This document shows, in pieces, positions 24,445 to 50,002 of a stretch of DNA of 64,000 nucleotides. The number at the start of each line of letters is the position of its first letter. Within the stretch, counting starts at the first letter, position 1. The notes beneath the pieces are model-generated. The model saw nothing but the letters and a program-made list of their open reading frames with translations, searched no databases and was not told where the DNA came from. The translations under genes and the position numbers were made by a program. Source of the stretch: a virus. The stretch spans positions 32,403-96,402 of the IMG/VR virus record IMGVR_UViG_3300027985_000661; one strand, written 5' to 3'.

Positions 24445-24471
24445 TGAAACCTTTCAAATATATCAATCGTA
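24445..24471 (+). promoter_or_regulatory. ECF-sigma-like promoter TGAAAC-N17-CGTA for the HNH ORF
   Basis: 21 nt upstream of ATG 24493. Confidence 0.55.
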
Positions 24472-24492
24472 TAACCACATAAAGGTTATACA

Positions 24493-24987
24493 ATGGAAAA
24501 AGAAATATTTAATAATTATAGTATATCGAATACCGGAATTATAAAAAGTAAATTTACCGGTAAAGAAATGAAACAATATATAAGTAATGTAGGATATTCT
24601 GCGGTTAGACTTACAATAGAAAAAGGAAAAACAAAATTATTCCACGTACATGTTTTAATCGCAATTGCTTTTTTAGATTATAGTTTAAGTAGTAATTTAG
24701 TTGTAGATCATAAAAATAATATAAGGACAGATAATAGATTAGAGAATTTACAATTAGTAACTAGAAGATTAAATAATACTAAAGAATTTACAGGGAAAGT
24801 AAAATATCCAGGAGTACATATAGAAAAAGGAAGAAGGCATTATAGAGCTCGGATAAAAAATAAAGATAAGTATTTATCATTAGGTTCCTACTTAGATCCT
24901 AAGGATGCATACAGAGCTTATATGAAATCTTTAAAAGAAATAGATATACAGGCTTATAATTATTATAAAGATATATTTGGAGAATAA
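24493..24987 (+). CDS. Intron-encoded HNH homing endonuclease with AP2-like C-terminal domain
   Basis: YSISNTG N-terminus, HVLIA, VDHKNNIRTDNRLENL (HNH), YPGV...YRARI...LGSY (AP2-like). Confidence 0.85.
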   Translation: MEKEIFNNYSISNTGIIKSKFTGKEMKQYISNVGYSAVRLTIEKGKTKLFHVHVLIAIAFLDYSLSSNLVVDHKNNIRTDNRLENLQLVTRRLNNTKEFTGKVKYPGVHIEKGRRHYRARIKNKDKYLSLGSYLDPKDAYRAYMKSLKEIDIQAYNYYKDIFGE

Positions 24988-25242
24988 ATAACTCCTTTAA
25001 TTGCTGGGAACTCCTATAATAGAGTATAGGGCAATCAGCAGCCAAGCTTCGAAAGAAGAAGGTTCAACGACTAGTCCGGCACGTTAAAAAGTGCGGTAGA
25101 AGGACGTACATCCAAGTGGATGGAAATGGGGAGCACCTTACTAGATAATGCTAAAGGTGAAGATATAGTCTAGTCTGTATGGTAACATACAGCAGTTCAT
25201 AAGAGAACGGGTACAGATTAACGACCTGTATTGAATATTACG

Positions 25243-27922
25243 TGACATTGATAAATTGTATTTTATACGCCATAATTATACCAAAGATGGATATAAGATA
25301 GAGTACTTAACTGATGACAATTCTACTCTTGAAGAAAGAATGGAGGCGTATGCAGAAGAAGTATTAAAAGATAGATTTAAAGATATTAAAAGAAAGTATA
25401 AAGGTGAAGAAATAGATAAGAGGATTAAACTTGAAATACTTAATTGGAAAAACAATAATAGAATTAGTTTTGAAAAAAGAAGTATTAAAGCTCAAAATAC
25501 TAAAGAAGCTGTACAGAATAGGTTATTAGATATGTATTTTGATATTTATAGGGATAGTAAGCATGCTGCACATAGAACTCAACCTTTAGGATATGGAGCC
25601 GACCAATTGAAAAAGCTTGCAAAAGATATAAGAAAATGGAATGGTACTATAAGAACTGATAAAGAAGGAAATGTAATAGAAACAGACGTTGAATCACTTA
25701 AATCTACTACTCCAGTATTTAACTTAGATGTTAAAGCTAGGTATAAATTAGGTAAAGCTTTAGGTTCTTATGCTCTTTCTAACGTTCACCATGCTTTAGG
25801 TCAGACAGTAGGACTTTCCCTTAACCAGAATATAGGATCTGGAAACCTAAATGAATTTGGAAATACCAGTCTTGCAGGATTATTAGGTAGGGATAATGAG
25901 TATATAATGGAGTGGTTCTCTGCTCTTATTGATGCTCACGTTGATATAGCAGCCGATCCTTTCATTTACTTCTTAAATGCCAATGATTATACAGTTAAAG
26001 AACTTTCGTTACTATTAAGAGCCGGTGTTGGCGGTATTAAGACGTTTAAATTTATAGCCCAACCTATACTGTCTTCTATTGCAAAAGAAGTAGAAAATGC
26101 TAAAAATAATATAGGTCTTGATATTCGAATTGCCGATGTTGTAGCTTCAATTAGAAAGAAATATGAAGCACAAGCTAGAAAACATGGAGTTTCGTATGTA
26201 GAGTATAACCCCTCTATAGATAATTTCGATTCTATATTAAATGAAGCAGAATTAGAAGATGCTTTTAAAGAATCTGCAAAAGAGAATCCAAAAGGAAGTT
26301 TTTACGTACAACAATTAAGGGTATTAGATGCTTTCCAAAGTATATCCTTACCTGCCCAGATGCTATCAGAAGCTGTAATGGCTAGTAGGATTGATACTAA
26401 GAAATTTGGTACATCGTTCTCAGAGGTAGAGAATTATACTATTAGAGTACAGAAAGCTTTAGATGACGAGGCAAAAGGAGCGGGAATTCAAGGTTTCAAG
26501 AAGTTTATTGAAGATACTTATTTAGGTGCCTATACCAACAATAGTATAGATCTATCTTATGGTATGTTATCTAATATATCTTTAGAGACCAAGCCTGCTT
26601 TTCGTAAAGCTGTTAGAAATATCTTAACAAGTGTAAATAAGAGGTATACTGCAAGTGAGAAACTAATAAAGACAGTATCTGATGAGATATATACTAACCT
26701 TACTGCTGCTTATTTTAAAGAAAAAGGTATACTTGAAGAAAGTATGATCAAATCGCTTATATATGGAAATAACAGTATTCCTAAAAGAGTAGAGGATATA
26801 AAAAATGGCAGTATTAAAGGATTTGAGAAGTATAAAGACTCAGGATTACTTTCTAAATTAGTACCTTACTATAAGCAGGATGCTCCTGATATGTTAATAT
26901 TTAATAAGCCTGATGATAAGTATGAAAAGGATTCGTTAGTTAGATCTTGGAAAGATATGGCAAACAGTACTAATCCAGATGTTAGAGCTTTTGCACAAGA
27001 TTTATTCTACTACTCCTATTTAACTAGTGGTTTTAAAAATACTCTTAATTCATTTTACGATCTCGCCCCTAGAGAATTATTAATAGATGAGGGCTATAAT
27101 GAGTTTATTAAAGAATATTTTAGTAAACTTAACGATCCTGATTATTTTGATATGTTCTTAGATGAATTCTACTTAAATAGTTGGAATAATAGTGAGTTAG
27201 TACCTGAAATTAAGGATAAGAGTATTAAAAGTAAGAAAAGTGCTAGTAAAGGAGGTACATACATGCTATTTACTGATAATATTTCTTTTTATGTAGGTAA
27301 GAATAATAAAGGCCAGTCTATTTATAGACCTTATATTAAGTATAAAGGGCCTGAAGGTTTAGAACTATATAAGTATACAGGTACTATATCAGAAAGAGGC
27401 AAAGAATTTGCAATTTATTATAGGGTAGAAAAGAAAGGTTATAATAAGAATGGATTTGTCGTAAAAGAGAATTTAACTAAAGGTACAATATTCTCTTCTA
27501 ATAGGACTGGATTACCTGATAGCGTTACTAAATATCTAAACCCTACTAATATATCTTCTATAGCGAATGCTAAAAATAAAGACGGTATTAAAATATTCGA
27601 TTTCCTAAGTAAGGCAGATTTCGTTAATATTGAGGATATGGTAGTGTCCCAATATAAAAATGATATAAGGGATTTCGATTCAGAAACACAGGCTAAAATA
27701 AACAGAATTAGACCTTTAGATTTGACCGATGAAGCCACTAAATTATTTAGTACCCAAGAGATTGTGACTACTAGTTTAGATATACAAAAAGGTTTCTATA
27801 CTTTGAATAATAATAAAATTGTATTTATTGATAAAATAGAAGAAGATTCTTATTTGGTTGAACAGTGGGGATACCAAACACCTACTTCTGAACAGATAGA
27901 TGCTAATATGAAAGAATGTTAA
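25243..27922 (+). CDS. Virion RNA polymerase, exon 2 (spliced product about 4322 aa from 14126)
   Basis: Frame continues DIDKLYF; QNRLLDMY and SALIDAHVDIAADP motifs. Confidence 0.9.
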
Positions 27923-27933
27923 AATAATAAATA

Positions 27934-32259: not shown

Positions 32260-32289
32260 AGTTCGTTAATATAATAATGCCAAAATTTA

Positions 32290-32320
32290 GGGGGGTATAG
32301 GAAACTATACTCCCTTTTTT
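32290..32320 (+). terminator. Intrinsic terminator of the late module
   Basis: GGGGGTATAG-GAAA-CTATACTCCC stem followed by a T run. Confidence 0.8.
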
Positions 32321-32326
32321 TATATT

Positions 32327-32353
32327 ATAAAAGGGGCATTTAGCCCCTTTATT
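32327..32353. terminator. Bidirectional terminator at the strand convergence
   Basis: ATAAAAGGGGC-ATTTA-GCCCCTTTTAT. Confidence 0.8.
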
Positions 32354-32372
32354 ATTTATATTAATATATTTA

Positions 32373-33056
32373 TTAACAGCAGCTTTCTGCAATACTTTCC
32401 ACCTTTTCAAGTAAGTCTCCTAAAGCTCGAAGACGTTTTTTAGGATCTTTATTTTCTAAGCCTTCTAAAATAGTGATATCCTCAATATAAGATGGAATAT
32501 TCTTAATAGCAATACCGTACTTCTCTGCTAATTCTTTTTCCTTAATATATTTATTTCGTTTTTCTTCATTACGTTTAGAAATTTCGATTTTTTCTTTTTC
32601 TTCAATTTCTAACATTAATTCAAAACGATAATCTTCAAATGCAGCCACGTCCGTTACGATATAAATTTCGTGTAATAGAAATTCATATCTACTTCGCCAA
32701 GAGTATTTGTAATCTCCGTATTGTATACCAAATTCTTTAAGAACATTTTCCATATTCAAAGTGTCTAAACAGGCCTTTTTAAAATCAAAATCTTCTTTTT
32801 CTTTTTTATTTAAACTTAATAAATTAGAATACGATCCTATAATTAATTCTTCGGCAGTATGATAGGCTGCCAATATTTTATTTTTACAGATAGTTTCTAA
32901 TGCTTCATTTAATGCACTTAATGTCATTTTATCAGAATTAAGAACATCTTTACCATATTCTTTTTCTAAAATGTCAGATAAAGGGGTTAAAAATTTAAAT
33001 TCTTTTAAATTTACTTTTCCATTTCCTTTTTTAAGATCTTCTAATGTTACTACCAT
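32373..33056 (-). CDS. Hypothetical protein
   Basis: 227-aa ORF, A-rich leader. Confidence 0.6.
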   Translation of the reverse strand: MVVTLEDLKKGNGKVNLKEFKFLTPLSDILEKEYGKDVLNSDKMTLSALNEALETICKNKILAAYHTAEELIIGSYSNLLSLNKKEKEDFDFKKACLDTLNMENVLKEFGIQYGDYKYSWRSRYEFLLHEIYIVTDVAAFEDYRFELMLEIEEKEKIEISKRNEEKRNKYIKEKELAEKYGIAIKNIPSYIEDITILEGLENKDPKKRLRALGDLLEKVESIAESCC

Positions 33057-33162
33057 TATATATAAAAATTTTTGTTAATATTAAATTAATAACTCCTTTT
33101 TGGAGTAGTGGGTAAAAGGGGTGCTATCCCCTAATACCCTGAGTATTAATAATAGCGGAAAA

Positions 33163-33849: not shown

Positions 33850-33896
33850 TTTATTTTATTTAATGATAAATAGTTAAATTATAATAAGTTTAATTA

Positions 33897-34886
33897 TTAC
33901 GCACTTTCTATAGTAGCGGCCTTTTCAATTTGAGACTCTACTGTTTTTTTAAGTAAACGGATACATTCGTCCTCTTTACCATCCTTTACTTTTAAAGTAG
34001 TATGGATAATTTCATTAATTTCGATAGTATCTTCTTTAACAATAGTTTCTATCTTATTATTAAAATTTAAAACCCCCTTTTTTTCTAAATGGTAGAGTCC
34101 ATTTAAAATAAAAAATCTAAGGTGGTCTATAGTATTAATTCCTTTTTCAATAGCGTTCTTAGAAATAGATAATAATAAATCCTCATTATTTTTATATTTT
34201 TCAGGTAACAGCCCTTTTGAAATGGTGCTAATAACATTAATATCTGAAAAAGTAAATTTATATATTTTTTCAAATCTACCTGGTCTAGATGTTAGAAAAT
34301 CTGGTAAATCTTCTATACTATTAACAGTAGATATAATAACAATATTATCCCGCGAATTAGCCCCGTCTAAGAATCCTAAAAATTTGGAACTTTTAAGACA
34401 CCATTGTGGGTTTTTTTCCAATTCGTCTAATACTATTACAATTAAACGAGAAGGATCATCATTAATTCGTAAATTATCTACCATTTCATCTAACTGAATA
34501 TCTACAATGTTAGATAGTACTACTCCAATACCATTATATTTATCAATTAAATCTTTAGCTACAGTGCAGGCTAAATGCGTTTTACCTGTTCCCGGGCTAC
34601 CGTCAAACATTAAATTTAATTTATTTAGCATGCCCATACTTTTTCTTAATTCGATTTTAATAGGATCGAAATGTTCTGAAATGTATTCGCAAGCTTCGGA
34701 GAATATTCCTGCTTTAATAACCTTAGAATTATCGTATCGGGTCATCTTTTCCACTTTTAAGTAAGGGACCATGGCATTTACTAAAGATAGATTGTACATA
34801 CCTTTTTCTAAAGAGGAATTGATCCCATCTTTTTTTTGTCCGATAATTTTAAAATTATTATCATTAAGTTTTACAAACATAGGCAA
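33897..34886 (-). CDS. AAA+ ATPase
   Basis: Walker A GSPGTGKT, Walker B IVLDELE, FLDG, STVN, arginine finger RPGRFE. Confidence 0.85.
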   Translation of the reverse strand: MPMFVKLNDNNFKIIGQKKDGINSSLEKGMYNLSLVNAMVPYLKVEKMTRYDNSKVIKAGIFSEACEYISEHFDPIKIELRKSMGMLNKLNLMFDGSPGTGKTHLACTVAKDLIDKYNGIGVVLSNIVDIQLDEMVDNLRINDDPSRLIVIVLDELEKNPQWCLKSSKFLGFLDGANSRDNIVIISTVNSIEDLPDFLTSRPGRFEKIYKFTFSDINVISTISKGLLPEKYKNNEDLLLSISKNAIEKGINTIDHLRFFILNGLYHLEKKGVLNFNNKIETIVKEDTIEINEIIHTTLKVKDGKEDECIRLLKKTVESQIEKAATIESA

Positions 34887-34898
34887 ATTTTAATAAAT

Positions 34899-34927
34899 AA
34901 AAAAGGGAACCTGTATAGGCTCCCTTT
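34899..34927 (-). terminator. Intrinsic terminator
   Basis: Minus strand AGGGAGCCT-ATAC-AGGTTCCCT followed by TTTTT. Confidence 0.7.
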
Positions 34928-34950
34928 GTATTAATCTTGTATATATATAT

Positions 34951-35118: not shown

Positions 35119-35177
35119 ATATCTCTGTTTAATGAGATTCTTAAGTTTGAAATGTTTTATTAAAATTTGCGAAATAT

Positions 35178-35831: not shown

Positions 35832-35842
35832 AAAATCATACT

Positions 35843-37693: not shown

Positions 37694-37891
37694 TTAGGTC
37701 ATTTTAATATTACAATCGTCTTCATCGTCTAAAAGAGTAATTCCTTTATATTCAAAAGATACCCAAGGGGATCCACAACATCCACATCCTCCTACATTTA
37801 GTTTAATATCATGATTTAAAAGTATTTCTTTTATACATTCTATTTTTTCTTCAAGTGGTAATTCTTTTATTTCATTAAGAAGTAATTCCAT
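37694..37891 (-). CDS. Small Cys-rich protein
   Basis: GGCGCCGSPW motif. Confidence 0.5.
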   Translation of the reverse strand: MELLLNEIKELPLEEKIECIKEILLNHDIKLNVGGCGCCGSPWVSFEYKGITLLDDEDDCNIKMT

Positions 37892-38330
37892 TTTTATTTC
37901 GTTTCCTAAGTTCTTGTTTAAAAGCTTCTCTATATATAGGATGTAAATATTGGTTATTTTTTTTAAAATATTCCAATATATTTAATATATGAGGAGTAGT
38001 TAATTTATTTATAGGCTTTTTAATAGGATTTTTTAAAGGATTTTCATCTGCATCATAAATAGATGTCCATTCTAATAACCCTGTTAAATCTGTACTAGAA
38101 TCATATAATATGTTCATATCCTCGTCGTTCCAGATTTTAAAATCATCTTTTAATATACCTATATTAATAAGACATTGCCCTATTCTTTGATCGGGATATT
38201 TATTCCATTCTTCAAAGAAGTTTTCATTATTCATAAAATCTTCTACCTCATAATCAATTTTCCAACGTTTTTTAAGAAAGTCAGTAGAGATATTACACCT
38301 GAATAACTCAATTCGTTCTATCGGTCTCAT
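37875..38330 (-). CDS. Hypothetical protein
   Basis: MRPIERI...WNKYPDQRIGQ. Confidence 0.55.
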   Translation of the reverse strand: MRPIERIELFRCNISTDFLKKRWKIDYEVEDFMNNENFFEEWNKYPDQRIGQCLINIGILKDDFKIWNDEDMNILYDSSTDLTGLLEWTSIYDADENPLKNPIKKPINKLTTPHILNILEYFKKNNQYLHPIYREAFKQELRKRNKNGITS

Positions 38331-38344
38331 TTTTTATTAAATTA

Positions 38345-38367
38345 AAAGGGGAGAAGTTACTCTCCCC
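38345..38367 (-). terminator. Intrinsic terminator
   Basis: GGGGAGA stem with TTTT on the minus strand. Confidence 0.65.
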
Positions 38368-38380
38368 GATTCATGAAGTA

Positions 38381-39280
38381 TCATAAAAATATTTTAATTA
38401 ATTCTAATACTTTAGAATTAGTATGTTGAGGTAATTTAATTGTCTTTAAATTTACTTTTTTACCTTCAATATTGTTTAATTCATGGTAAATATGCCCTTT
38501 TACAGATAGGGGCAAATCATTTAAATTTAATTCTACGTAATTACCTTCTAAATTAACAATTAAAGAGTTTACAAAAGTGATATTTTCTCCTGGTAGAAAA
38601 GCTGTTACAGGATTGGCATAAACAATAGTTCCTTTTTTTATCTCTACCGGATTTAAAATTTTAATTCCAGATTTTACAGTATCTGGGACACCTTGTATAT
38701 AAGTTCCATTACTCTCAATAAACATTAATCCTTTTATGTTTTTATGCATACTGAATACAAAATTAACCATATCATTAAGTTCGGATTCATTATTTACTTT
38801 AGTAAAGGCTGCTGAAAATATTCTATTATGTAGCAAAGTATTATTTTTACCAAATACATATTCAGAGGTACTTACACAATTTTTTCCTGATAACTCTACT
38901 GTACTTTCTTCAAATACACTCACATTTAAATGCATTTGTAAATCTTTTGGTACAATACCGTTTGGGTTAAATAATGCCATTACTAACTCACTATTATTTA
39001 ATGAATTAGTAGTTAATACTGCATGTACAGTTACACTTTTATCTTTTGAAAGCTTTAATGCCGGTTTAAATAAATTTTGAAAATCTAAAGATAAAATATA
39101 ATAAGGGTACATTAATAGAAATGGCTCTCCTTTACGAATAACAATAGGTAGTCCATTTTTAATAGGGGTTACGTATGCTGGAAATTTCTTTGTTGCTATA
39201 TTTGCAATTTCACCAATAATTTCTGGAAATACACTTGGTATGAAATTGTTAGTTTTGTTTGTATTGGCGGCTTTTAACAT
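38381..39280 (-). CDS. Degenerate ATP-dependent DNA ligase-like protein (probably inactive)
   Basis: YVTPIKNGLPIVI aligns by eye with motif I (xxKxDGxR); IKGLMFIESNGTYIQG with motif IV (EGxxx...Y..G); OB-like C-terminus. Confidence 0.45.
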   Translation of the reverse strand: MLKAANTNKTNNFIPSVFPEIIGEIANIATKKFPAYVTPIKNGLPIVIRKGEPFLLMYPYYILSLDFQNLFKPALKLSKDKSVTVHAVLTTNSLNNSELVMALFNPNGIVPKDLQMHLNVSVFEESTVELSGKNCVSTSEYVFGKNNTLLHNRIFSAAFTKVNNESELNDMVNFVFSMHKNIKGLMFIESNGTYIQGVPDTVKSGIKILNPVEIKKGTIVYANPVTAFLPGENITFVNSLIVNLEGNYVELNLNDLPLSVKGHIYHELNNIEGKKVNLKTIKLPQHTNSKVLELIKIFL

Positions 39281-40235
39281 AATTTAATTTGTTTGAAATG
39301 AGTAAACTAGTTTTATCATGACCGTATTTTAAAAAATAATCACTTAAATCTTTTTCTTTTTTACTATAAGTAAAGCAGAACCCTGCATCTGGGATTTGAG
39401 TTTTAAGTAACTTTTTTGTACTTTTTATTCCTGCTAAATCTTTATCATACCATATAATTATATATTTGAAATTTTCCCTTAAAATTTTTAAAACTTTTTC
39501 AGGTATAGAATGACCTTCTCCATTAGGAGCAATAGCAGTAAAGCCCATTTCATACAAAAGCATTACATCTTTTAAAGATTTTGTTATAATAACAGTATCT
39601 TTAGAGTAATCTAATTGTTCCCAACCTTGAATATCAATATTAGAACAATTTGTATAAAATTTATTTTTATTAAAAGGACGGTATATTTTATTTTTTTCGT
39701 ATACTTCGTAATTAAATATTGGGTTTTTTTCAGTAGAATACCCATGTAATTTTCCATTTACCCAGTATTTAGAAGCTTCGGAAACGTTGAAATATTCTAA
39801 AGTTTTTTTTGAAATTCCATATTTATACCAAAAATTTAAACCTTCTTCTGTAAATTCTTTTTTTTCAACAACTATATCTACAGTGTCATTTTTTCTTTTT
39901 GGTATTGTTTTGGTTTTTTTAAATACTATTTTTTTTGAAATATATTGAGAATGCAGCAATTCATAAACATCATTGATTTTTATTCTTTCAATAATACTTA
40001 CAAATTTAAAACAATTACCTGCTTCTCCTGTTCCTAAATCTTTAAATAATAATGCTCCGTTTGTTGCGTAAAACAAACCAAAAGAAGGGTTAGAATCTCT
40101 TCTAAACGGACTACTATATAAATGACCTACTATAGGTCTAAAGCCTAAATATTGTGCAAATATATCATATTCTGTTGTGAATTTTAATATATCTTTCTTA
40201 GTAGGGGGATACAGATTTCTAGTATTATAGACCAT
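39249..40235 (-). CDS. DNA primase (crAss-type DnaG/TOPRIM)
   Basis: SPFRRDSNPSF, FKDLGTG, KIYRP, IITKSLKDVM and WYDKDLAG motifs. Confidence 0.85.
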   Translation of the reverse strand: MVYNTRNLYPPTKKDILKFTTEYDIFAQYLGFRPIVGHLYSSPFRRDSNPSFGLFYATNGALLFKDLGTGEAGNCFKFVSIIERIKINDVYELLHSQYISKKIVFKKTKTIPKRKNDTVDIVVEKKEFTEEGLNFWYKYGISKKTLEYFNVSEASKYWVNGKLHGYSTEKNPIFNYEVYEKNKIYRPFNKNKFYTNCSNIDIQGWEQLDYSKDTVIITKSLKDVMLLYEMGFTAIAPNGEGHSIPEKVLKILRENFKYIIIWYDKDLAGIKSTKKLLKTQIPDAGFCFTYSKKEKDLSDYFLKYGHDKTSLLISNKLNYVKSRQYKQN

Positions 40236-40248
40236 AAACTATGATTAA

Positions 40249-40279
40249 AATACCTGCCCCAATTAAGGGGCGGGTATTT
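40249..40279 (-). terminator. GC-rich hairpin between the SSB and primase genes
   Basis: AATACCTGCCCC-AATTAA-GGGGCGGGTATT. Confidence 0.6.
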
Positions 40280-40284
40280 ATTAT

Positions 40285-40929
40285 TTAAAAAGGTAAATCT
40301 TCGTTATCTTCAGATTCACTAGTAGTTTCTACACCAGTTTCATCTAATCCTACCAAAGGGTTAACCTTACGTGTTCTAATATCTACTTTTGGGGTAGGAC
40401 GTTCCATAACATCCTTAGATGTAATACGAATTTTAGAATTTTCTACAGATACTAAATCTGCGCGTTCTATCCACTCATTATCATCATCTGTATATGAAGG
40501 GGTAGTTACCCATCCATTTTTATCAAATGCACATTTAATACGTAAAGGTACATTTAGAAATTTACCCTCTAGTTCTGCTTTAACATGGTTAGCCAAAGCT
40601 TCAAAATTAGCATATTCTTTATTTTCAAATATTTTTTTGTCAATAAATAAACCTGCTATTTTGAAAATACGCTTCATCTGAATAGCTGCAATAGCTTGGT
40701 ATTTTTTTTTATCCTCCTCAGATAACGTATTAAAATTAGATGGAAAATTAATTCCCCATTCGGTTTTACTTAAAATTTGACCTTCTTTATTTTCATAATA
40801 AAAAGCCAAATATGGTTTATTATTAGCAGAGATAGCTACTTTTACCTCTGTCATTTTTACTTCATGAATCCCTGCTCCAATAAATTTAGGAGTTCTTTTT
40901 TCTAAAACGTCTGTAGTTACTTTATACAT
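40285..40929 (-). CDS. Single-stranded DNA-binding protein
   Basis: Acidic C-terminal tail ending EDNEDLPF; follows the Sak4-like gene. Confidence 0.7.
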   Translation of the reverse strand: MYKVTTDVLEKRTPKFIGAGIHEVKMTEVKVAISANNKPYLAFYYENKEGQILSKTEWGINFPSNFNTLSEEDKKKYQAIAAIQMKRIFKIAGLFIDKKIFENKEYANFEALANHVKAELEGKFLNVPLRIKCAFDKNGWVTTPSYTDDDNEWIERADLVSVENSKIRITSKDVMERPTPKVDIRTRKVNPLVGLDETGVETTSESEDNEDLPF

Positions 40930-40933
40930 TTTA

Positions 40934-41635: not shown

Positions 41636-41664
41636 TGACTATTTATTTATTTTAAGTTTAATTT

Positions 41665-42195
41665 TTATTGAGTAAGTACTCCTAATTTTTCTAAAATTTC
41701 AAATTCCTCGTAAGATAGAATTTTATTCCCCACGCATACAAAACTAGAATGTTTTGTAATTTGTAAAACCGGATTAGGTTTACTTACTTTTTTAATCACA
41801 ATGTCCATACAAACACCGTATTTTTCTAATAGAAAATTAGCAAATCCCGCTAAGACCAAATCAAGGTCTTTTTCTAAATCGTAAATAGGACATAATGTTA
41901 ATAACGGGTGGGGTTTTAAATAAGATAAAGGTTCAAAAGAGATGTCGAATTTGTTAGATACTCCTACAGCAATTACATCCCGTTTAATTTCATGGGTTTC
42001 ACCAATTTCAATTTTAAATTCTTCAGTGAAAATCTCAAGTAATTTTTCTTTTACTAATACAGGTCCTCTATGATTTCCTGTAATTCCTTCTACAGTAAGC
42101 CCTGGTAATTTTTTTGCTGCTTCTGTAAGGAAATTTAGTAAAATATCTTTTTCTTTAGTATTCTTATTATTATATTTAATTGCAAATTTATGCAT
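41665..42195 (-). CDS. Hypothetical protein
   Basis: 176-aa ORF in the operon. Confidence 0.55.
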   Translation of the reverse strand: MHKFAIKYNNKNTKEKDILLNFLTEAAKKLPGLTVEGITGNHRGPVLVKEKLLEIFTEEFKIEIGETHEIKRDVIAVGVSNKFDISFEPLSYLKPHPLLTLCPIYDLEKDLDLVLAGFANFLLEKYGVCMDIVIKKVSKPNPVLQITKHSSFVCVGNKILSYEEFEILEKLGVLTQ

Positions 42196-42223
42196 AGGCC
42201 TTATTTATTTATTTTGTAGAAAA

Positions 42224-43000
42224 TTAAATTACTATGTTGGATGAGGGATCTCCTTTAATAGGCTCCTCTATCCTGTTATACTTTAAATTATTTTCAAATT
42301 CAAGTATTTTTAGCTCCCCTTCTCTGTTTTTTAAAAAGTGAGCGTAAACTTTGTTTGTTGTGGGCCACGCATTCAAGCCATAAGCTGTTATGCCTAATGT
42401 TTCTGGACGATGTAATACGAGAACATAGTCAGAAGCTTGGTATATGCTATCTCCGCCGAAAAGATCTCTTCTCATTGGAAAATGCATAGAATGGTTAAGT
42501 ATTCTATCTTTTTCTTCAATATCTCGATTCATTTGAGACAGTTGAATAATAGTGGTACGTCCTAATTTTTTAACTCTCATAAACATTGTCTGTAAATGAG
42601 TTAAAATAGTACGTTCCGCTTCCCCATTTTTACCTCTAGTTAATAGAGTATGGTCTAATTCAATTATTAGCCATTTATCTTTAGCTACCGTATTTAAAAA
42701 ATGGATAATTGTAGTTTCCATTTGTTCTACTGTACCTGGAAAATCAACATAATATATTTCATATTTTTTAATTTTCTCTAATTCTTTCTCTATATTAAGT
42801 AGGTCTTTATCTTGCAAAGTGACGCTAGAGTCGCCACTATACAATTCTTTTGTAGTTTTATTTAAACTAGAAGATAACTTCCTTCCTACTTGGCGTGAGC
42901 TTAACATTTCAAAGTTAAAAGACAAGACAACAAATTCGGTGTCCGGGTTCAATTCAAATAAATCAGTTTCTAATGAATTCACAAAACTAGATTTTCCACT
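42224..43000 (-). CDS. DnaB-like replicative helicase, exon 2
   Basis: SGKSSF completes Walker A; FNFEM, IIELDH, LSQMNR, SIYQASD and KNREG motifs. Confidence 0.9.
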   Translation of the reverse strand, partial: SGKSSFVNSLETDLFELNPDTEFVVLSFNFEMLSSRQVGRKLSSSLNKTTKELYSGDSSVTLQDKDLLNIEKELEKIKKYEIYYVDFPGTVEQMETTIIHFLNTVAKDKWLIIELDHTLLTRGKNGEAERTILTHLQTMFMRVKKLGRTTIIQLSQMNRDIEEKDRILNHSMHFPMRRDLFGGDSIYQASDYVLVLHRPETLGITAYGLNAWPTTNKVYAHFLKNREGELKILEFENNLKYNRIEEPIKGDPSSNIVI

Positions 43001-43404
43001 CGTACCACTACAGTTTTCACTGCCAGCAATCAGGAGCTGTTTGTGGTCTGGACTATATATTCAATCACCAGCCCAAAGGTCTGTGTCTAGGAGAGTTATT
43101 ATATGCGTCTTTCGCGCTTCCTATGTAATGGATTCTAGAATCTTAACCCATAATGATTGTATCTGCATCTAGTCTCTACGGCTGGAGCATTATCCCCTAT
43201 GCCTCGGTATTACCTCTGACCTAATAATCACCGTAGTGGTTACTACCTCACAATCACATTTATACTTTAGTTTATATCAGCTAAAGTCCCGTGATCAGGT
43301 GCTAACTGTATTAGGTTTTAGGATTTCTTACCAGCTTATTCGTCCTGTTAATCAGACAGGTTATATTTTTACCTTAGTTCAGCTGTGACCGATATTCAGA
43401 TATT

Positions 43405-43974
43405 TTATTCCGGCAGTTTTTCAGAATATTTAAAAATATATTGATGTTCTCTATTATGCTTTTTATGGTTGCCTGATAGAGATTGTTGTACAGATCTGTA
43501 CTTTACACCTAGTTGTTCTGAAGCTTCTTTTAAAGAATCAAACTCTCCTACATATTCTTCCACTAAACGGTATACTTTTACTTTTTTGTATACGTTTTTA
43601 AATTTCTTATTTCTCCACATTTGTTTAGAGTATTCGGAAATTTTCTTTTTAGTTTCTTCCGTAGGTACATAAGTAGGAAATATTTTTCTATTTATGTTAT
43701 ATTCTGGATTAACTTTATTAATCCATTTTTGCTCTTTTTCTATTAAAAGATTAACATCACATTCTTCAATCATAAAACAACTAAATCCTTCAGAATTTTT
43801 ATTCCAAGAATTTTGTAAATGAGGATTAGAATGTATCCCTCTTTTTAATTGTGATTTATGTTTATGAAGCCTATGATAGACATCTTTAGAACTTCCAATA
43901 TATTTTTTAGAATTATGTAAATTAACTATTACATATATTCCTGATTTTTTCCAAAGGCAACTTTTAATTTTCAT
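43405..43974 (-). CDS. Intron-encoded GIY-YIG homing endonuclease with NUMOD-like C-terminal modules
   Basis: SGIYVI...YIGSS...R...H, EQKWI, PEYN, EETKKKIS and FDSLKEASEQLGV motifs. Confidence 0.9.
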   Translation of the reverse strand: MKIKSCLWKKSGIYVIVNLHNSKKYIGSSKDVYHRLHKHKSQLKRGIHSNPHLQNSWNKNSEGFSCFMIEECDVNLLIEKEQKWINKVNPEYNINRKIFPTYVPTEETKKKISEYSKQMWRNKKFKNVYKKVKVYRLVEEYVGEFDSLKEASEQLGVKYRSVQQSLSGNHKKHNREHQYIFKYSEKLPE

Positions 43975-43993
43975 ATACTAGTTTTATTTTTTA

Positions 43994-44018
43994 TACGAAA
44001 TTATGTGGTTAAAGTTGC
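43994..44018 (-). promoter_or_regulatory. ECF-sigma-like promoter GCAAC-N16-CGTA for the GIY-YIG ORF
   Basis: About 20 nt upstream of ATG 43974. Confidence 0.6.
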
Positions 44019-44026
44019 GCCTATTC

Positions 44027-44218
44027 ACCGGATGTTCCAGCAATAGTATATATGGCATTAGGCTCAATGCCTCCCATGCAAAGATTGTTAAATTTGTTCC
44101 ATCTTGTTTTTAAAGATTTTATTTCGCCTTTTTTACGAAGGTGTATATAATCTTTAATTTCATTTGCCGCTTGGCTAATATGAATAAATTCCAATGGTTT
44201 AACAAAGCTCTGTTCCAT
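44027..44218 (-). CDS. DnaB-like helicase, exon 1 (spliced product 322 aa)
   Basis: LKTRWNKFN...GGIEPNAIYTIAGTSG. Confidence 0.88.
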
Positions 44219-44753
44219 ATCCTAAATTTGTTTCAACTATGCTTTCTTTGGTATCATTTAGTTTCTCTCCCCATTCTGTCCAGCCTTCGCTGTCTAGCCA
44301 ATTAGGGAGTCTTTTCATCCATCCTAAAGTACCATTTCTAGTACGTTCTTGAACTTCAAATTTTAAACAAGATAATATATAATCATGAATATCTTTCCTA
44401 TTTCTAGTAAGTCTCATGTACTTTCTCTTGCTTTTTGTTTTGCTTATTCTTAGGTAATCCTTACTACCGTCTTTTCTTATAACACTTATTGGAAAGTTAG
44501 ATATAAGTTCTTCGAAAGAATCTTTGTCCTTTAAGGATTCTAGTATGCTTTCTTCGATAGTATATTTATTTTTATTAGTTGTTAGAATACCATTTTTTAC
44601 TAACTCTTCTAAATCAAAAGTAGGGTCTGAATTAAATCTTCCAAATTCTTTTTTAATTCCGGCAACCCCTTTACCCTCTATTATAAGTGTTAATATATAA
44701 AACTGATTTGGTGTTACTTTTTGGTTTCTTAAAAAATCTAATTTTATTTCCAT
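44199..44753 (-). CDS. Putative replication initiator/helicase loader (HTH)
   Basis: HTH-like N-terminus, WMKRLPNWL motif; overlaps the helicase start. Confidence 0.55.
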   Translation of the reverse strand: MEIKLDFLRNQKVTPNQFYILTLIIEGKGVAGIKKEFGRFNSDPTFDLEELVKNGILTTNKNKYTIEESILESLKDKDSFEELISNFPISVIRKDGSKDYLRISKTKSKRKYMRLTRNRKDIHDYILSCLKFEVQERTRNGTLGWMKRLPNWLDSEGWTEWGEKLNDTKESIVETNLGYGTELC

Positions 44754-44826
44754 ATAAGAACTTTTAATATAGTTCTGAAATATGTATGAAATAAATTAGC
44801 CAGCTCTGATATTAATATTCATTTCT

Positions 44827-44970
44827 TTAATGACCCCAAACTTTGCCAACTACAGGTTCTGTAATCATAGGAATAGAGGTGAAAAAATATTTCCCTGCTT
44901 TTTCCATTGCCCATTTTAGGATTTTTTTCGCTTCTTCTGCATACTCAGATAGCGCTTCTAAAACAATTTC
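44827..44970 (-). CDS. polA: DNA polymerase A, exon 3
   Basis: EIVLEALSEYAEEAKKILKWAMEKAG...GKVWGH stop; completes motif C HD-E. Confidence 0.88.
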   Translation of the reverse strand, partial: EIVLEALSEYAEEAKKILKWAMEKAGKYFFTSIPMITEPVVGKVWGH

Positions 44971-45037
44971 CAAATATGTTACGAATATACCGATTCCGTA
45001 TACTCTCTTATAATTTCTTATAAGTTCGGACTATATC

Positions 45038-45727
45038 TTATAAAGTAATTTTAGCAAATAATTTACCTAATTGCATATTGCTGTATACTTTATCAGTGCT
45101 TTTCAACTTCTCTTGAAGCTTACTCCATTTAAGGATAGTCTCTGAACTCCATAATTTATATTTAAAACAATTTAATGGATAGGTAGAAAGTATTTTATTT
45201 ATCTCGTAGGCTCCGTCATATTTACCTATTCTTAGATAATAAAACACTCTTCCATCTTTTTTTGTTTCTTTTGTTACTTTAGCTTTTATATTATATTTTA
45301 ATAAAAAATTAGCGATTATTTCGTTTTCTTTTTTTGAAAATTTATGTGTATTTAAATTATAAAATAATTTAGTTTTATGTAAACTTCCATCATCATAAAA
45401 CCACAATGCTAATCCTAAAGTACTTAAAAGATTTAATTTAGATTTTAAATCTAAATTTGCTATTTTAGTTATACTTTTATTTCTTTTAGTTGATAGTGTA
45501 TATATAGGTTTTTGTTTATATCCATTTTTAGAAATAAATCCTATATTAAAACTTAAATCTTCTAATAATAGTTTTTTAAATTCTAAGTATTCTTTATGTA
45601 TGCAATTTGTACTCATTAAATAATTATGAGTTTCTTTTTTTCTATATAAATTACCATCTCCTAAAGTAGATGAAAGTATAACTTGTAATTGTTTTTCATT
45701 TAAATTATAAAGCTGCTGATTGTCCAT
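45038..45727 (-). CDS. Intron-encoded LAGLIDADG homing endonuclease (two motifs)
   Basis: ILSSTLGDG and LALWFYDDGS motifs. Confidence 0.88.
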   Translation of the reverse strand: MDNQQLYNLNEKQLQVILSSTLGDGNLYRKKETHNYLMSTNCIHKEYLEFKKLLLEDLSFNIGFISKNGYKQKPIYTLSTKRNKSITKIANLDLKSKLNLLSTLGLALWFYDDGSLHKTKLFYNLNTHKFSKKENEIIANFLLKYNIKAKVTKETKKDGRVFYYLRIGKYDGAYEINKILSTYPLNCFKYKLWSSETILKWSKLQEKLKSTDKVYSNMQLGKLFAKITL

Positions 45728-45753
45728 TTTAAAGTAATTTAATTTACTTATTA

Positions 45754-45778
45754 TACGTAAAATTATTACATAAGTTAC
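45754..45778 (-). promoter_or_regulatory. ECF-sigma-like promoter GTAAC-N16-CGTA for the LAGLIDADG ORF
   Basis: Sits between the intron P and Q elements, 26 nt upstream of ATG 45727. Confidence 0.6.
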
Positions 45779-45854
45779 ATGACAGTAGTGTACTTAGTAT
45801 TTACGTCTTTAGGAGTTTCCAGCAATTAACACTGTTTTAACACAACAAAATTTT

Positions 45855-45968
45855 ATCGTGCACCACAATTACTATTTTAATAGGAGAGTTAAGAGTAGGG
45901 GGAAATCCTAAATCTTTTATGCGCTTTTTAATTAAAATTAAGGCAATTTTAGTCATATCCCCAGCTGT
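45855..45968 (-). CDS. polA: DNA polymerase A, exon 2 (38 codons, absent from the ORF track)
   Basis: TAGDMTKIALILIKKRIKDLGFPPTLNSPIKIVIVVHD. Confidence 0.9.
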
Positions 45969-45975
45969 CAATATG

Positions 45976-46566
45976 TTATCGTAAAGGCTCTTTATCCTTT
46001 ACTTCTACAGATTTATTATTCTCTGTAGTTCGGACTATATCTTCAAATGATTCTATATAGTTAAATATATTATGTGCAAATTTTTCAAGTTCACTGAAAT
46101 CAGCGTCGTTTTTCATTGTGTTTGCTTTTTTAGATATAACTCTTACATTTCCTGGAACATAACCTAATTCAGGTTTTATCCTATCTAAAGTAGGAGAATA
46201 TCTATCTTTATCAAATTTAACTATTAAAATAGGGCAATATTTTGGAATTATTATATCTTTCAATTCAAGTTCAAATTTAATTTTTTTTCTTTTTGCTCTT
46301 GATTTTGTAGAATATAACAGTCTTCCTTCTATATTACTCCAGTAACTTTTTTTCTTTTGTTCAGAGATTTTTTTACGATGTTCTAGATTATTAGCCCTGC
46401 GTTCTCGCCTTTTACGATTACGCTCATCTTTATTTTTATCTCTTATTTTTTTAGCTATTTCTTTTTTACATTTAATGCAATAATGATCATAGCCTAGAGG
46501 TTGCGCTTTATTTTTATAAAATTCACTATCCCCTTTTTCTTGCTTACATTTACAACATATTTTCAT
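45976..46566 (-). CDS. Intron-encoded Zn-finger/His-Me-finger (HNH-like) endonuclease
   Basis: CCKC...CIKC zinc finger; CPIL...SPTLDRIKPELGYVPGNVRVIS..AN. Confidence 0.75.
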   Translation of the reverse strand: MKICCKCKQEKGDSEFYKNKAQPLGYDHYCIKCKKEIAKKIRDKNKDERNRKRRERRANNLEHRKKISEQKKKSYWSNIEGRLLYSTKSRAKRKKIKFELELKDIIIPKYCPILIVKFDKDRYSPTLDRIKPELGYVPGNVRVISKKANTMKNDADFSELEKFAHNIFNYIESFEDIVRTTENNKSVEVKDKEPLR

Positions 46567-46575
46567 ATATTCATG

Positions 46576-46600
46576 TACATACCTTTTATTTAAAAGTTAC
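46576..46600 (-). promoter_or_regulatory. Variant promoter GTAAC-N16-TGTA for the polA intron 1 endonuclease
   Basis: 9 nt upstream of ATG 46566. Confidence 0.45.
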
Positions 46601-46748
46601 TGACATTTGCCATGCGCTCGTGGGTTTTCATATTCTGTTCTAGAACGTATAACCTAGTCTCTGAACCTTTATAGTATCCCTACTATACTTGGCTGCTGAT
46701 CGACATTTCAGTTTTCCAGCAATTCACATGGTTTAGACAGGGCCGCTG

Positions 46749-48461
46749 ACCCTGTATAGGGGTATTCATCCCTTTTCTTTCAATACTTCCTTTTAATTTT
46801 CCTATTTTGCTTCTATCTTCTTTAGATAGAGACCAGTAATCTTTGGATTTTAATTTTTTATATTCTTCGTATTCTGGGATCCAACGTATACGATTTGTAA
46901 TTGGATTTGTCCGTATAACTCCATCTGTAATAGCTTTCTTTTTATTATTGTTAAAAAGTGTTTTTAAAGTTGGAAATCCCTCGTAAAAAGATTGAATTAG
47001 CTTCTCAGCTTCATCTATTGTTATTTTTAATGTTTTAGATAAGGTAAATGCACTTCCCCCAAATGAAATCATAAAGTTAAGTATTTTACCTTTTTGCCTA
47101 TACTCTTCGTTTTCTGTTTTAGAAACTTTAAATTCTCTTCCGAAAGCAGCCGAGAACATTTTTGTAGCGACGAAACTATGCACATCTCCGTCTCCGTTAT
47201 TAAAGAAATTAATATAATCGTCATCCTTTGCAAAGGCAGCCATTATTCTACCTTCTTGGTTAGCATAATCCGCAGTAATTAAGTCTTTTCCTTCAGGGGC
47301 TATAAAAGCTCCTCTAAACTCATCTCCGGCGGGTATTTGCTGCATATTTGGATTTCGACTACTTACTCTACCTGTATTAACAATTTGGTTAAAGTAAGTT
47401 CGCAATCTACTATCATTACTTATGTGTTTGTTAAGAAATTTCTCACCAAAAGAACTAATAATTTTAGATTCTACTCTAAACTGAATTAATTTTTCTACAA
47501 AAGGCGGCCTTTCATCAAGCATTTCGAGGGCCGGTGTTCCTGAACTAGGTTTGCCATCCTTGTCTTCAGGGTAAATTTTAAATGTATTTGTAAGTATTTT
47601 GTAAACTTGTATATCACTATTCCAGTTTACATTGGTAAGCCTTTCTTTAACTAAATCTGAAAATAAATTTAATTGAAAAGCTTGTTTTTTATATTTTGGA
47701 TCTTTAGCGATTAGTAATTCATCTAATTCTAATAATGTATTTTTTAAATTAGATTTGTATTTTATATGTGTATTTAACCATTTTTTTTTATCTATATAAA
47801 ATCCATTATACTCTATATCGCCTAGTACTAAGACAGTAGCATTTTCAAGATTTACAACTTTTGTTAAATTATATTTATTAATTAACTTTAATTGCGTTTC
47901 CCTTATTTCTAAGGGGTACCTTACGTCTAATGCCCCATATTTAATTTGTTCGTAAGTAAAAGGTTTACTTCCCCATGTTGAAAATTCCTCTCTTACAGTT
48001 TTACTAAGTGTTTTATCAAAATAGTATTTATATACGCCCGCTAAAGAATATCTTTTTTCTTTTACTATTTGGGCTGTAGAATATCTACCATTATGTATAA
48101 CCCTATCTATTACCATTGTATCGTAAACATTATTTAAAAATATGTTATATTTTTTTAACATATTGTAATCAAATTTAATGTTGTGCCCTACAAAAGTAAT
48201 ATCTTTACATTCTAGAAATTCTTTTAAAATAGAAAAATCGAAACCTCTAGTATCTATTACAATTTCGTTTATTCCGTTACCTAATTGAAGCATTACAATA
48301 TCGTTAATAAATGGGTTAAGTCCATTTGTTTCACAATCTAATGCAATTATATTAGTATTACGAAAAGAATTTATAATATCAAGAAGTTCCGATTTATTAA
48401 TATATTCTATTTCTATTTCTTTTTCCAGAAAATTAGTTTGTTGGCTAAAGTAATATACCAT
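46749..48461 (-). CDS. polA: DNA polymerase A, exon 1 (3'-5' exonuclease plus polymerase; spliced product 656 aa)
   Basis: ExoI DCET, ExoII HNIKFD, ExoIII YGALD, TGRVSSRNPNMQQIP, motif A DYANQE, motif B RQKGKILNF. Confidence 0.92.
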
Positions 48462-48721
48462 ACATTTTTTCTTTCTATTTCTAAAACTTCTATATTAAAG
48501 AATGTTTTTTGTTTTGAAAATTTAGAAATAAATATGGAATGTTTCTTTATATTAGGTTTTATTAAAAGTCCTAAGTTTTCTATAAAAATATGATACGGGG
48601 AATTAAGAATTATTTCTCCCTCTTTTTCAGTTTGTTTATTAGTTATTAAATATAATTTAATTTTATTATCAATTTTAAGAGTTACTTTATCCCCGCATTG
48701 AAGTGCGAGTTTACGTTTCAT
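48413..48721 (-). CDS. Hypothetical protein
   Basis: 102-aa ORF. Confidence 0.5.
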   Translation of the reverse strand: MKRKLALQCGDKVTLKIDNKIKLYLITNKQTEKEGEIILNSPYHIFIENLGLLIKPNIKKHSIFISKFSKQKTFFNIEVLEIERKNVWYITLANKLIFWKKK

Positions 48722-48733
48722 TTTTTTAAAATT

Positions 48734-49267
48734 TTAAACTATATAAAGTTTTATTTCGACTTCTATAGTTTTATTATACTCTTTCCGGTAATTGTCATGG
48801 TATTTATGAATTTCTTTATTTTTAGAAATATCTTCTTTTAAGGATTTCACCATGTTTTTGTAATCCTCTGAGTTGAAACTTTCGTATTTTTTAATTAAGT
48901 TCAAAATAAGAGCATTTTGTTCTTTAATATCCCCTAATTGATAAATTGACCCATTAATTCCGGTAATTTTTTCTGATTCTGCTGTTCCTGCATTTGCGAT
49001 AGCCATTAGTTGTTTAATTACAGTAGAATTCGCATACAAGGCTTCTAATTTAGCTAATGTCATTAGAATATCATCGCTGCTCAAGTTACTGGCCCCCATA
49101 AGGATTCCTTTATAACTTTTAATTTTATTTATTGTTCTTGTTTTAAGATTTACTAAACCTTTTAAGGAGCATTTCTTGGTAACTGTTTTAAAGTTTTCAA
49201 GTTTAGTAGAATTTATAATTACAGCTCCTTTTTTAATTTTATTATTAATTGAGTTATTATTCAACAT
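48734..49267 (-). CDS. Hypothetical coiled-coil protein
   Basis: 177-aa ORF. Confidence 0.5.
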   Translation of the reverse strand: MLNNNSINNKIKKGAVIINSTKLENFKTVTKKCSLKGLVNLKTRTINKIKSYKGILMGASNLSSDDILMTLAKLEALYANSTVIKQLMAIANAGTAESEKITGINGSIYQLGDIKEQNALILNLIKKYESFNSEDYKNMVKSLKEDISKNKEIHKYHDNYRKEYNKTIEVEIKLYIV

Positions 49268-49922
49268 GTTTTCTGAGATTTTTTTGATTTAACATTTTTG
49301 AAATTAATTTATCCTTTTTGTTTTCTAAATCTAATAAACATAAAGGATTTATTGGAATATTGTCTATGCGTACTTCATAATGTAAATGAGGTCCTGTAGA
49401 CCATCCTGTGTTGCCTAGTGTCCCAATAGTATCATTAATTGTTACTTTTTGCCCTTTTACTATGTTAATATGTTGTAAATGAGCATAGTAGCTTTCAATT
49501 CCTTTCCCATGATTTATTATAATCAAGTTTCCGAAACTGAATGACTTTTTTACCTCTTTTATTACTCCAGTCGCAGCAGGATAAATAGGAGTCCCTATGT
49601 TACCTGAGAAATCTATTCCATTGTGGGATGATTTTATTTTTAAAACTGGATGTATTTCTCTAATACCGTAATATTCACTTATTCTTTTTATTCCTTCTTT
49701 ATCTACAGGTAGACAAATAGGTATATTCTTAGTTTTAATATTGTATTTATTTTTAAGAATGTTAAAAGACAATGAATAGACATTGAAAGCTTCTATTGTA
49801 GAAATTTCCGCTTTTTTAAATGATTTTGAAATTGGTTTAGAAGAATTTAAATTTATTGATGCGGTTAAAAATAGTAAAAAAGCTACAAATAACTTTTTCA
49901 TATGAATTATTTTAGTTAACAC
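49257..49922 (-). CDS. M23 family metallopeptidase with N-terminal signal/anchor (likely start 49901)
   Basis: HNGID, YYAHL and GWSTGPHLHYEV motifs; MKKLFVAFLLFLTAS leader. Confidence 0.9.
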   Translation of the reverse strand: MLTKIIHMKKLFVAFLLFLTASINLNSSKPISKSFKKAEISTIEAFNVYSLSFNILKNKYNIKTKNIPICLPVDKEGIKRISEYYGIREIHPVLKIKSSHNGIDFSGNIGTPIYPAATGVIKEVKKSFSFGNLIIINHGKGIESYYAHLQHINIVKGQKVTINDTIGTLGNTGWSTGPHLHYEVRIDNIPINPLCLLDLENKKDKLISKMLNQKNLRKHVE

Positions 49923-49977
49923 TGGTGTATTTCATTTGTCAACGTTTTGAACAAGTATATACACATAAACTTAATTT

Positions 49978-50002
49978 TACGATAAATTATATTCAAAGTT
50001 AC
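49978..50002 (-). promoter_or_regulatory. ECF-sigma-like promoter motif GTAAC-N16-CGTA
   Basis: Same motif and spacing as upstream of the intron endonuclease ORFs. Confidence 0.55.

Follow-up and report, generated by a model that had tools for sequence, protein, structure and literature searches.

A putative ECF-type promoter class shared by intron endonucleases, an M23 peptidase and structural genes in an environmental crAss-like phage

The stretch of DNA analysed here (hereafter the window) comprises 64,000 nucleotides, bases 32403-96402 of IMG/VR virus record IMGVR_UViG_3300027985_000661, which is a complete virus genome of 96,402 bp with direct terminal repeats. Its gene layout is crAss-like, including a giant virion RNA polymerase gene (window 14087-27922), and its DnaB shares 59% identity with the DnaB of cr118_1, a phage of the Suoliviridae. 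An earlier note on the window had pointed to five copies of a two-box, promoter-like motif, upstream of four intron endonuclease genes and an M23 peptidase gene, and had proposed a co-regulated nuclease set. Our results suggest that the five sites are copies of a phage-wide promoter class, probably read by host RNA polymerase together with a host extracytoplasmic function (ECF) sigma factor, which would place the nucleases and the peptidase on the schedule of the structural genes. The proposed nuclease set did not survive, as the motif also stands, in at least six more copies, before genes other than nucleases, among them the structural block. The nucleases thus appear to have joined a general promoter class of the phage.

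All five sites were found letter for letter where they had been placed (Table 1), and four of them continue as AACTT, as had been said. The conserved part proved longer than first noted, with the extended consensus G(T/a/c)AAC(T/C)TT-N13-CGTA(T/A)A(A/T). A weight matrix of two blocks, with 11 seed sites, was scanned over the whole 96.4-kb genome and gave 12 sites. All 12 have the -35 box G(T/A/C)AAC and 11 have the -10 box CGT(A/T), with AAC and CGT separated by N16 in 10 sites and by N17 in two. The exception is the site at 46600, the weakest of the five noted first, whose perfect -35 box is followed by a deviant -10 box (TGTA for CGTA).

De novo dyad enrichment, in which upstream regions were compared with the genome, placed AAC-N16/17-CGTA at p ~3e-4 among ~54,000 dyads, which is not significant alone. 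Detection thus required the pattern in its full length and the weight matrix. GTAAC-N16-CGTA occurred seven times in the whole genome, compared with 0.23 expected from 200 dinucleotide shuffles, and the same pattern followed by [TA]A occurred six times, compared with 0.05 in shuffles. At thresholds of at least 13.3, 15, and 17 bits the matrix found 12, 10, and 8 sites, respectively, vs. 2.07, 0.53, and 0.08 in shuffled sequence, and the top non-site in the genome scored 12.7 bits. When seed sites were left out one at a time, 9 of the 11 outscored every non-site in the genome; on this score alone, the sites at 46600 (11.2) and genome position 5264 (9.7) are within the range of noise. Every one of the 12 sites is sense to the local genes and 10 are intergenic, intergenic DNA making up 7.2% of the genome. 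The matrix scan, which the earlier note had proposed as a check on enrichment and positional bias, thus showed a motif far above shuffles, always sense and mostly intergenic.

The boxes and their spacing fit the ECF architecture AAC-N16/17-CGT, which had been set apart from the Bacteroidota housekeeping promoter, and this distinction was upheld. The housekeeping element TAnnTTTG was not enriched in the phage (145 copies observed, 141 expected), its 12 intergenic copies (8.3%, compared with the intergenic share of the genome) were mostly antisense, and none of the TAnnTTTG copies had a TTG 17-21 nt upstream. Other promoter types were also considered. A primary-sigma reading (TTGACA-N17-TATAAT; 0 observed, 1.9 expected) and a sigma-54-type reading were rejected, and a FliA-like reading (TAAAGTTT-N11-GCCGATAA) was not preferred, given that in bacteria the matches stand before a gene for an ECF sigma.

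The plus strand of the genome carries a long structural block and the opposite (minus) strand a replication block, within which copies of the motif occur only before the four intron nucleases and the M23 peptidase gene. The genes behind the five sites had been named as HNH-AP2, GIY-YIG, LAGLIDADG, Zn-finger HNH and M23 peptidase genes, and matches to Pfam and PHROG bore this out. The endonucleases had also been called mutually unrelated; they do belong to four different families, are all intron-borne, and are unrelated in sequence beyond the two boxes. Inside the introns, the promoter-like sites stand 9-26 nt before the ATGs of the four nuclease open reading frames (ORFs).

The same motif is found in bacterial chromosomes. 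The strict pattern GTAACYTT-N13-CGTAWA was searched in 401 Bacteroidota genomes and gave 44 matches in 34 of them. Among 37 inspected loci, 23 were sense sites in intergenic DNA, 2-74 nt and in most cases 18-45 nt away from a gene start, and 10 lay inside ORFs; the background for an intergenic, sense position no more than 100 nt from a start is 2.9% of Bacteroidota positions, or 8.6% for AT-rich words. Genes downstream encode an ECF sigma factor, the primary sigma factor RpoD (rpoD, in two genomes), SPFH/Band 7 proteins (three), a STAS protein and an anti-sigma kinase in one operon (three genomes, with the boxes kept and the spacer changed), a PP2C phosphatase, LiaG-like secreted proteins, a TetR regulator, and an IS1595 transposase. 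Judged by these genes, the strict motif appears to mark a hitherto undescribed stress regulon of Bacteroidota, consisting of rpoD, SPFH, the STAS and anti-sigma kinase operon, PP2C phosphatase, and LiaG-like genes. The PP2C phosphatase is accompanied by a DksA-like zinc finger, and in one genome (G332) the motif heads six copies of the IS1595 transposase gene.

Upstream of the ECF sigma gene the motif is well kept. Ten of 11 orthologues (64-99% identity) carry GTAAC-N16-CGTA (one with CGTT, one with a spacer of 17) 30-50 nt upstream, mostly followed by T(T/A)A, and the eleventh locus is probably truncated. The motif of this clade, GTAAC(T/A)(T/A)(T/A)-N12-nCGTAT(T/A)A with a spacer of 16, equals the phage consensus. 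The sigma gene forms a conserved three-gene operon with genes for a putative anti-sigma factor and a secreted protein. The clade (e.g., L086 and G295) is related to NCBIfam NF058625 (the GFO_1088/PG0214 family) but scores below its cut-off, and the true PG0214/GFO_1088 (NF058625) sigmas have GTAACAAA-N12-TCGTCTTG upstream, with CGTC rather than CGTAT in the -10 box. Autoregulation is the usual case for ECF sigma genes. Since the same motif precedes the gene of this clade, its sigma factor becomes a concrete candidate for reading the motif in the phage.

Related phages also carry the motif, in part. Fragments of relatives with 64-69% identity in the large terminase subunit (TerL) keep xxAAC-N16/17-CGT(A/T) upstream of the terminase-proximal gene, the spacer sequences being different. 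In four TerL relatives a conserved leader (TAATTGCTTTGCC...) starts 7-8 nt after CGTA, where a start site would be expected, and the extra GTAACTTT...CGTA copies in such relatives are all on the coding strand. The earlier note had also proposed a matrix scan of related phages, for which we used a DnaB-based comparison of 80 loci, with a group of 57-65% identity (431 kb) and one of 43-48% (416 kb). In the closer group the coding strand carried 34 matrix sites and the antisense strand 4, compared with 2 and 3, respectively, in the more distant group; a coding-strand excess was thus seen in the closer group, and the distribution is patchy. Sites in the 57-65% group precede genes for an endonuclease VII-HNH protein, two GIY-YIG proteins, a T5orf172-type protein, and a DUF1064-like nuclease, as well as small ORFs and PolB. 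A polA query of viral contigs returned one distant relative, which is without the motif.

The endonuclease VII/HNH-like ORF of the window is homologous to the polA-intron ORF of the gut phage cr116_1 (46% over the C-terminal half). The cr116_1 gene is not preceded by a GTAAC/CGTA motif, and CTTTGCAT...ATAAA stands in front of it instead, a pattern that, read from sequence, would fit each nuclease taking on the promoter of the resident phage. The same CTTTGCAT-N-ATAAA element is present before both cr116_1 intron ORFs; it resembles the -33 box of phi14:2 middle promoters and lies unusually near the ATG.

In the mechanism that we favour, a host ECF sigma factor would be freed from its anti-sigma factor by envelope or other stress, possibly by infection itself. 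Host polymerase carrying this sigma would then initiate at the motif sites, and the structural block and several plus-strand accessory genes would be transcribed. Within the replication block, only the four nucleases and the M23 peptidase would be driven from such sites, so that their transcription would follow the timing of the structural genes and not that of the polA, dnaB, and RNA polymerase genes that harbour the nucleases. We infer the start of transcription at the sites, the identity of the sigma, and gating of translation by a hairpin at the HNH ORF, where 8 bp of GTATAACC/GGTTATAC pair the -10 box with the bases just before the ATG. Since this hairpin includes the -10 box, it would be absent from promoter-initiated RNA and could form only on read-through RNA. 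Late timing likewise is our reading, and middle/late expression is suggested only by which genes carry the motif.

As reader of the motif, the earlier note had named either a host ECF sigma or a phage sigma, and had placed the latter outside the window. The host factor gained support from the occurrence of the motif before the Bacteroidota ECF clade and stress-type genes; the phage sigma found no match, and a dedicated search of the complete genome revealed none. Translated in six frames, the whole genome had no match to Pfam sigma region 2 (PF04542) at E <= 10, and region 4 (PF08281) matched only the helix-turn-helix of the GIY-YIG nuclease (E 0.022). A profile made from 29 Bacteroidota ECF sigmas found nothing better than E 1.4 among all phage ORFs, and no sigma was present among ~45 phage proteins in general family scans. 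These results, and the gene-proximal position of the motif in phage-free bacterial chromosomes, which indicates that a capable host factor exists, make it unlikely that the promoter class is read via a phage-encoded factor, be it a diverged sigma, as with T4 gp55/gp33, SPO1 gp28/gp34, and phiEco32 gp36, or an activator by which host polymerase is redirected. We nevertheless give that explanation some weight, since many phage ORFs are without a family match, several of them of 110-230 aa in early-looking regions, the patchy motif among relatives fits gain and loss of a phage gene, and phage-encoded ECF-like sigmas do exist (phiEco32 and 7-11; PMC8948821).

The motif could also serve as promoter for the two-barrel RNA polymerase that the phage itself encodes, i.e., the giant virion enzyme or a processed form of it. 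The virion polymerase of a crAss-like phage transcribes early genes (bioRxiv 10.1101/2020.03.07.982082), and a cluster of five sites is found at 4-10 kb from the left of the genome, where small genes of early appearance lie next to them. We consider this quite improbable, since transcripts of the phi14:2 virion polymerase are without a common upstream motif and the middle/late genes of that phage are read by host polymerase, since two boxes with a 16-nt spacer are the design of a sigma-70-family holoenzyme, and since the motif heads structural genes rather than the replication block and is also found at Bacteroidota gene starts. Least credible is that the motif is no promoter but an operator, a shared piece of intron RNA or of a mobile cassette, or partly chance in AT-rich spacers: T4 intron endonucleases do bind operators that overlap their own promoters (PMC2988022), four of the five sites first noted lie in introns and that at 46600 is weak, yet 7 of the 12 sites are outside introns and before non-mobile genes, the nucleases and introns are unrelated in sequence apart from the two boxes, the counts are far above shuffles, the sense bias recurs in relatives (34 vs. 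4), and the distance to bacterial gene starts is mostly 18-45 nt.

Several observations weigh against reading by a host ECF sigma. Among public sequencing runs, the phage is contained only in hydrothermal-vent metagenomes, all of DNA, and in none of RNA. Profile searches would miss a phage sigma as strongly diverged as T4 gp55. Since AAC/CGT boxes are common to many ECF groups, a match to the motif does not identify the sigma; moreover, at E <= 1e-48 the ECF clade was present in only 16 of 301 sampled genomes, and a query with the M23 gene, which returned no viral relatives and only two weak matches among Bacteroidota genomes, did not point to a host. About two of the 12 matrix sites could be due to chance. 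There was no strict match in a 68-kb relative with 70% DnaB identity, and in phi14:2, cr116_1, cr118_1, and two other crAss-like genomes the motif was at chance level. Finally, the accessibility of the start region rises in every short RNA form (e.g., from 0.53 to 0.83 and from 0.41 to 0.89), but this comparison is biased by RNA length, and the argument from the hairpin is weak because longer RNAs always pair more.

Table 1. Promoter-like sites, nuclease ORFs and associated genes (window positions unless marked as genome positions).
Feature	Position	Strand	Remarks
Promoter-like site TGAAAC-N17-CGTATAA	24445..24474	+	18.8 bits; 8 nt past stop ending exon 1 of giant virion RNA polymerase ORF, 21 nt before HNH ORF
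Promoter-like site GCAAC-N16-CGTATAA	43991..44018	-	20.3 bits; begins 3 nt past DnaB exon 1 stop, 19 nt before GIY-YIG ORF
Promoter-like site GTAAC-N16-CGTATAA	45751..45778	-	19.5 bits; 26 nt before LAGLIDADG ORF (polA intron 2)
Weaker site GTAACTTT-N13-TGTACAT	46573..46600	-	15.4 bits, leave-one-out 11.2; 9 nt before endonuclease VII/HNH-like ATG (polA intron 1)
Top-scoring site GTAACTTT-N13-CGTAAAA	49975..50002	-	21.4 bits; 76 nt before in-frame M23 ATG (49901)
Promoter-like site GTAAC-N16-CGTATAT	9353..9380 (genome 41755)	+	17.0 bits; 33 nt before 878-aa virion protein gene, within last codons of preceding gene
Further site	genome 4247		Before ferritin-like gene (phrog_16594)
Further strong site GTAACCTT-N13-CGTAAAC	genome 4862		Before ~370 nt without ORF
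Further weak site	genome 5264		Leave-one-out 9.7; before 58-aa Zn-ribbon ORF
Further site	genome 7614		Before 114-aa ORF
Further site	genome 10239		Before 172-aa gene that precedes the large terminase subunit gene and opens the plus-strand structural block
Further site, spacer N17	genome 26313		Inside a gene
878-aa virion protein gene	9411-12047	+	PHROG matches
HNH_3 + NUMOD4 homing endonuclease ORF	24493..24987	+	Pfam; inside group I intron, just upstream of catalytic core
Group I intron catalytic core	24946..25192	+	Interrupts giant RNA polymerase gene; Rfam RF00028, 95.1 bits, E 4.5e-25
GIY-YIG + NUMOD1 homing endonuclease ORF	43405..43974	-	Pfam; DnaB intron
LAGLIDADG_2 homing endonuclease ORF	45038..45727	-	Pfam
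Zn-ribbon endonuclease VII/HNH-like homing endonuclease ORF	45976..46566	-	PHROG matches, no Pfam match
Peptidase_M23 gene	49257..49922	-	Pfam E 8.7e-31; start GTG 49922 or, more likely, ATG 49901
DNA polymerase A gene	44827..48461	-	Three exons, 48461-46749, 45968-45855, 44970-44827; two endonuclease-bearing introns
DnaB-like helicase gene	42260..44753	-	Parts 44753-44241, 44218-44027, 42961-42260; tblastn with cr118_1 helicase parts; split by GIY-YIG-bearing intron
Hairpin-preceded gene starts	33897-34950, 37875-38380, 39249-40285, 54532-54960, 57667-58057, 59980-60667	-	

The genes interrupted by the introns were also reconstructed. Joined, the polA exons form one open frame of 656 aa, and exon 3 matches polA exon 2 of cr116_1. 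At the DnaB position that holds the GIY-YIG ORF, cr118_1 has a gap without an ORF, and the Pfam DnaB_C match in our phage is truncated at profile position 49. In megablast searches the RNA polymerase intron showed likeness to intron DNA adjoining the endonuclease genes of other phages. The cores of the polA and DnaB introns were not recognised by Rfam in a focused run. When Rfam was run on the whole window at the gathering threshold, nothing was returned and the RNA polymerase intron was missed, whereas the 0.9-kb region alone gave 95 bits (gathering score 50); speed filters can hide strong matches. At window 44199-44218, the ORF that encodes the N-terminal helicase part and the ORF of helicase exon 1 share ~20 nt, read in different frames, as they do in cr118_1, and this conserved overlap suggests either a frameshift or two separate genes.

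Additional features lie downstream of individual sites. The ORF-less stretch at genome 4890-5260, directly downstream of a strong site, had a fold z-score of -0.97 and no Rfam match; it may be transcribed into a non-coding RNA, comparable to the intergenic RNAs that are reported as abundant in phi14:2. Between the promoter-like site and the first gene of the structural block (genome 10239-10384) there is a strong hairpin followed by a T-run (GCCTGTAT...ATACAGGCTTTTTT), and relatives keep the same order of promoter-like site, conserved leader of ~45 nt, hairpin with T-run, and gene. To us this arrangement looks like that of a late operon gated by antitermination, as in lambda PR'-tR'. The 76-nt leader of the M23 gene contains a mini-ORF of 10 codons (ATG TGT ATA TAC ... 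TGA; window 49966-49934, minus strand) downstream of the predicted start site. Many genes of the minus-strand replication block have a GC-rich hairpin and T-run 15-30 nt before the ATG and no recognisable promoter (Table 1), and these hairpins may be read-through terminators or start signals for the virion polymerase, like the hairpin promoters of phage N4.

What is known of how crAss-like phages control transcription comes from a single model, phi14:2, and the present genome points to a different solution, with no housekeeping-type promoters and about ten putative promoters of ECF type, similar to the one that a Bacteroidota ECF clade has before its own sigma gene. Our literature search found no paper linking GTAAC motifs to Bacteroidota ECF sigmas and none linking a lytic phage to a host ECF sigma. 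What is new is the ECF-type signal, which is without report for crAss-like phages in the literature searched; promoter adoption of the kind seen in T4 and the host-polymerase late promoters of phi14:2 were known. If our interpretation is true, the late genes of a lytic phage would depend on a host stress sigma. It would also show in a concrete example how homing endonucleases that are unrelated have each acquired the promoter of the resident phage, and would supply an ECF group that is still uncharacterised with a candidate regulon and recognition motif, in a phylum whose ECF targets are mostly unknown. A bolder version can be put forward only tentatively, and we would sooner doubt than adopt it: an environmental crAss-like lineage may have given up housekeeping promoters and wired its late programme, i.e., virion genes, a cell-wall peptidase, and selfish intron nucleases, to an infection-induced envelope-stress ECF sigma of the host, so that an alarm signal of the host would serve the phage as a developmental timer, the same data defining an undescribed Bacteroidota stress regulon that includes the operon of the ECF sigma itself. 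For crAss-like phages that are uncultured, the motif could help to find late operons and nuclease genes, whether free-standing or in introns, during genome annotation.

Among known systems is that of the crAss-like phage phi14:2, in which the virion polymerase makes early RNA and host polymerase with the primary sigma reads the middle/late genes (bioRxiv 10.1101/2020.03.07.982082). From its sequence we read the middle/late promoters as (C/T)TTGCA...TAnnTTTG upstream of g070, g075, and g108. Both crAss-like genomes thus have two-box promoters of a host-polymerase type before middle/late genes (virion and terminase-proximal), but those of phi14:2 are of the housekeeping TAnnTTTG type, which is not enriched here, and GTAAC/CGTA is at chance in phi14:2. 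In phiEco32 and 7-11, a phage-encoded ECF-like sigma on host core polymerase drives middle/late genes (PMC8948821); there the sigma is a phage gene, whereas none was found in the complete genome here. A second promoter type has been described in Bacteroidota as well: PM2 of Bacteroides thetaiotaomicron is a non-canonical motif (PMC7366714) that has been proposed as an ECF recognition element (PMC12596196). By description only, the phage motif is like PM2, which has boxes near -30 and -10, belongs to stress and stationary-phase genes, and is attributed to ECF sigmas.

The parallel with T4 that the earlier note had drawn, namely that intron endonucleases have late promoters of their own, holds: T4 intron nucleases have their own middle or late promoters within early units, and hairpins keep read-through RNA from being translated (PMC2988022). 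In our phage, as in T4, endonuclease ORFs in introns of DNA-metabolism genes each stand directly behind a copy of the phage's own promoter class, within a transcription unit of another class, and the hairpin at the HNH ORF may be comparable to the T4 hairpins that sequester the ribosome-binding site. Unlike T4, in which gp55 reads a single late TATAAATA box, this phage has two ECF-like boxes, and it belongs to another phage family with a host of another phylum. It also differs in having four nuclease families in three genes and in being known from sequence alone.

SigW promoters of B. subtilis have the form TGAAAC-N16-CGTA. The phage motif shares with them the AAC -35 box, the CGT(A) -10 box, and the spacer of 16-17 nt, and, as in an envelope-stress regulon, the matching Bacteroidota motif stands before envelope genes of the SPFH/flotillin-like and LiaG-like kinds and before the operon of the sigma itself. 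It differs from SigW promoters in that the phage -35 box is mostly GTAAC(T/C)TT, the -10 box extends to CGTA(T/A)A, and the bacterial examples are from Bacteroidota and not Firmicutes. As to the ECF clade related to NF058625, the phage consensus equals the clade's autoregulatory-type motif; the sigma gene of the clade is bacterial and not a phage gene.

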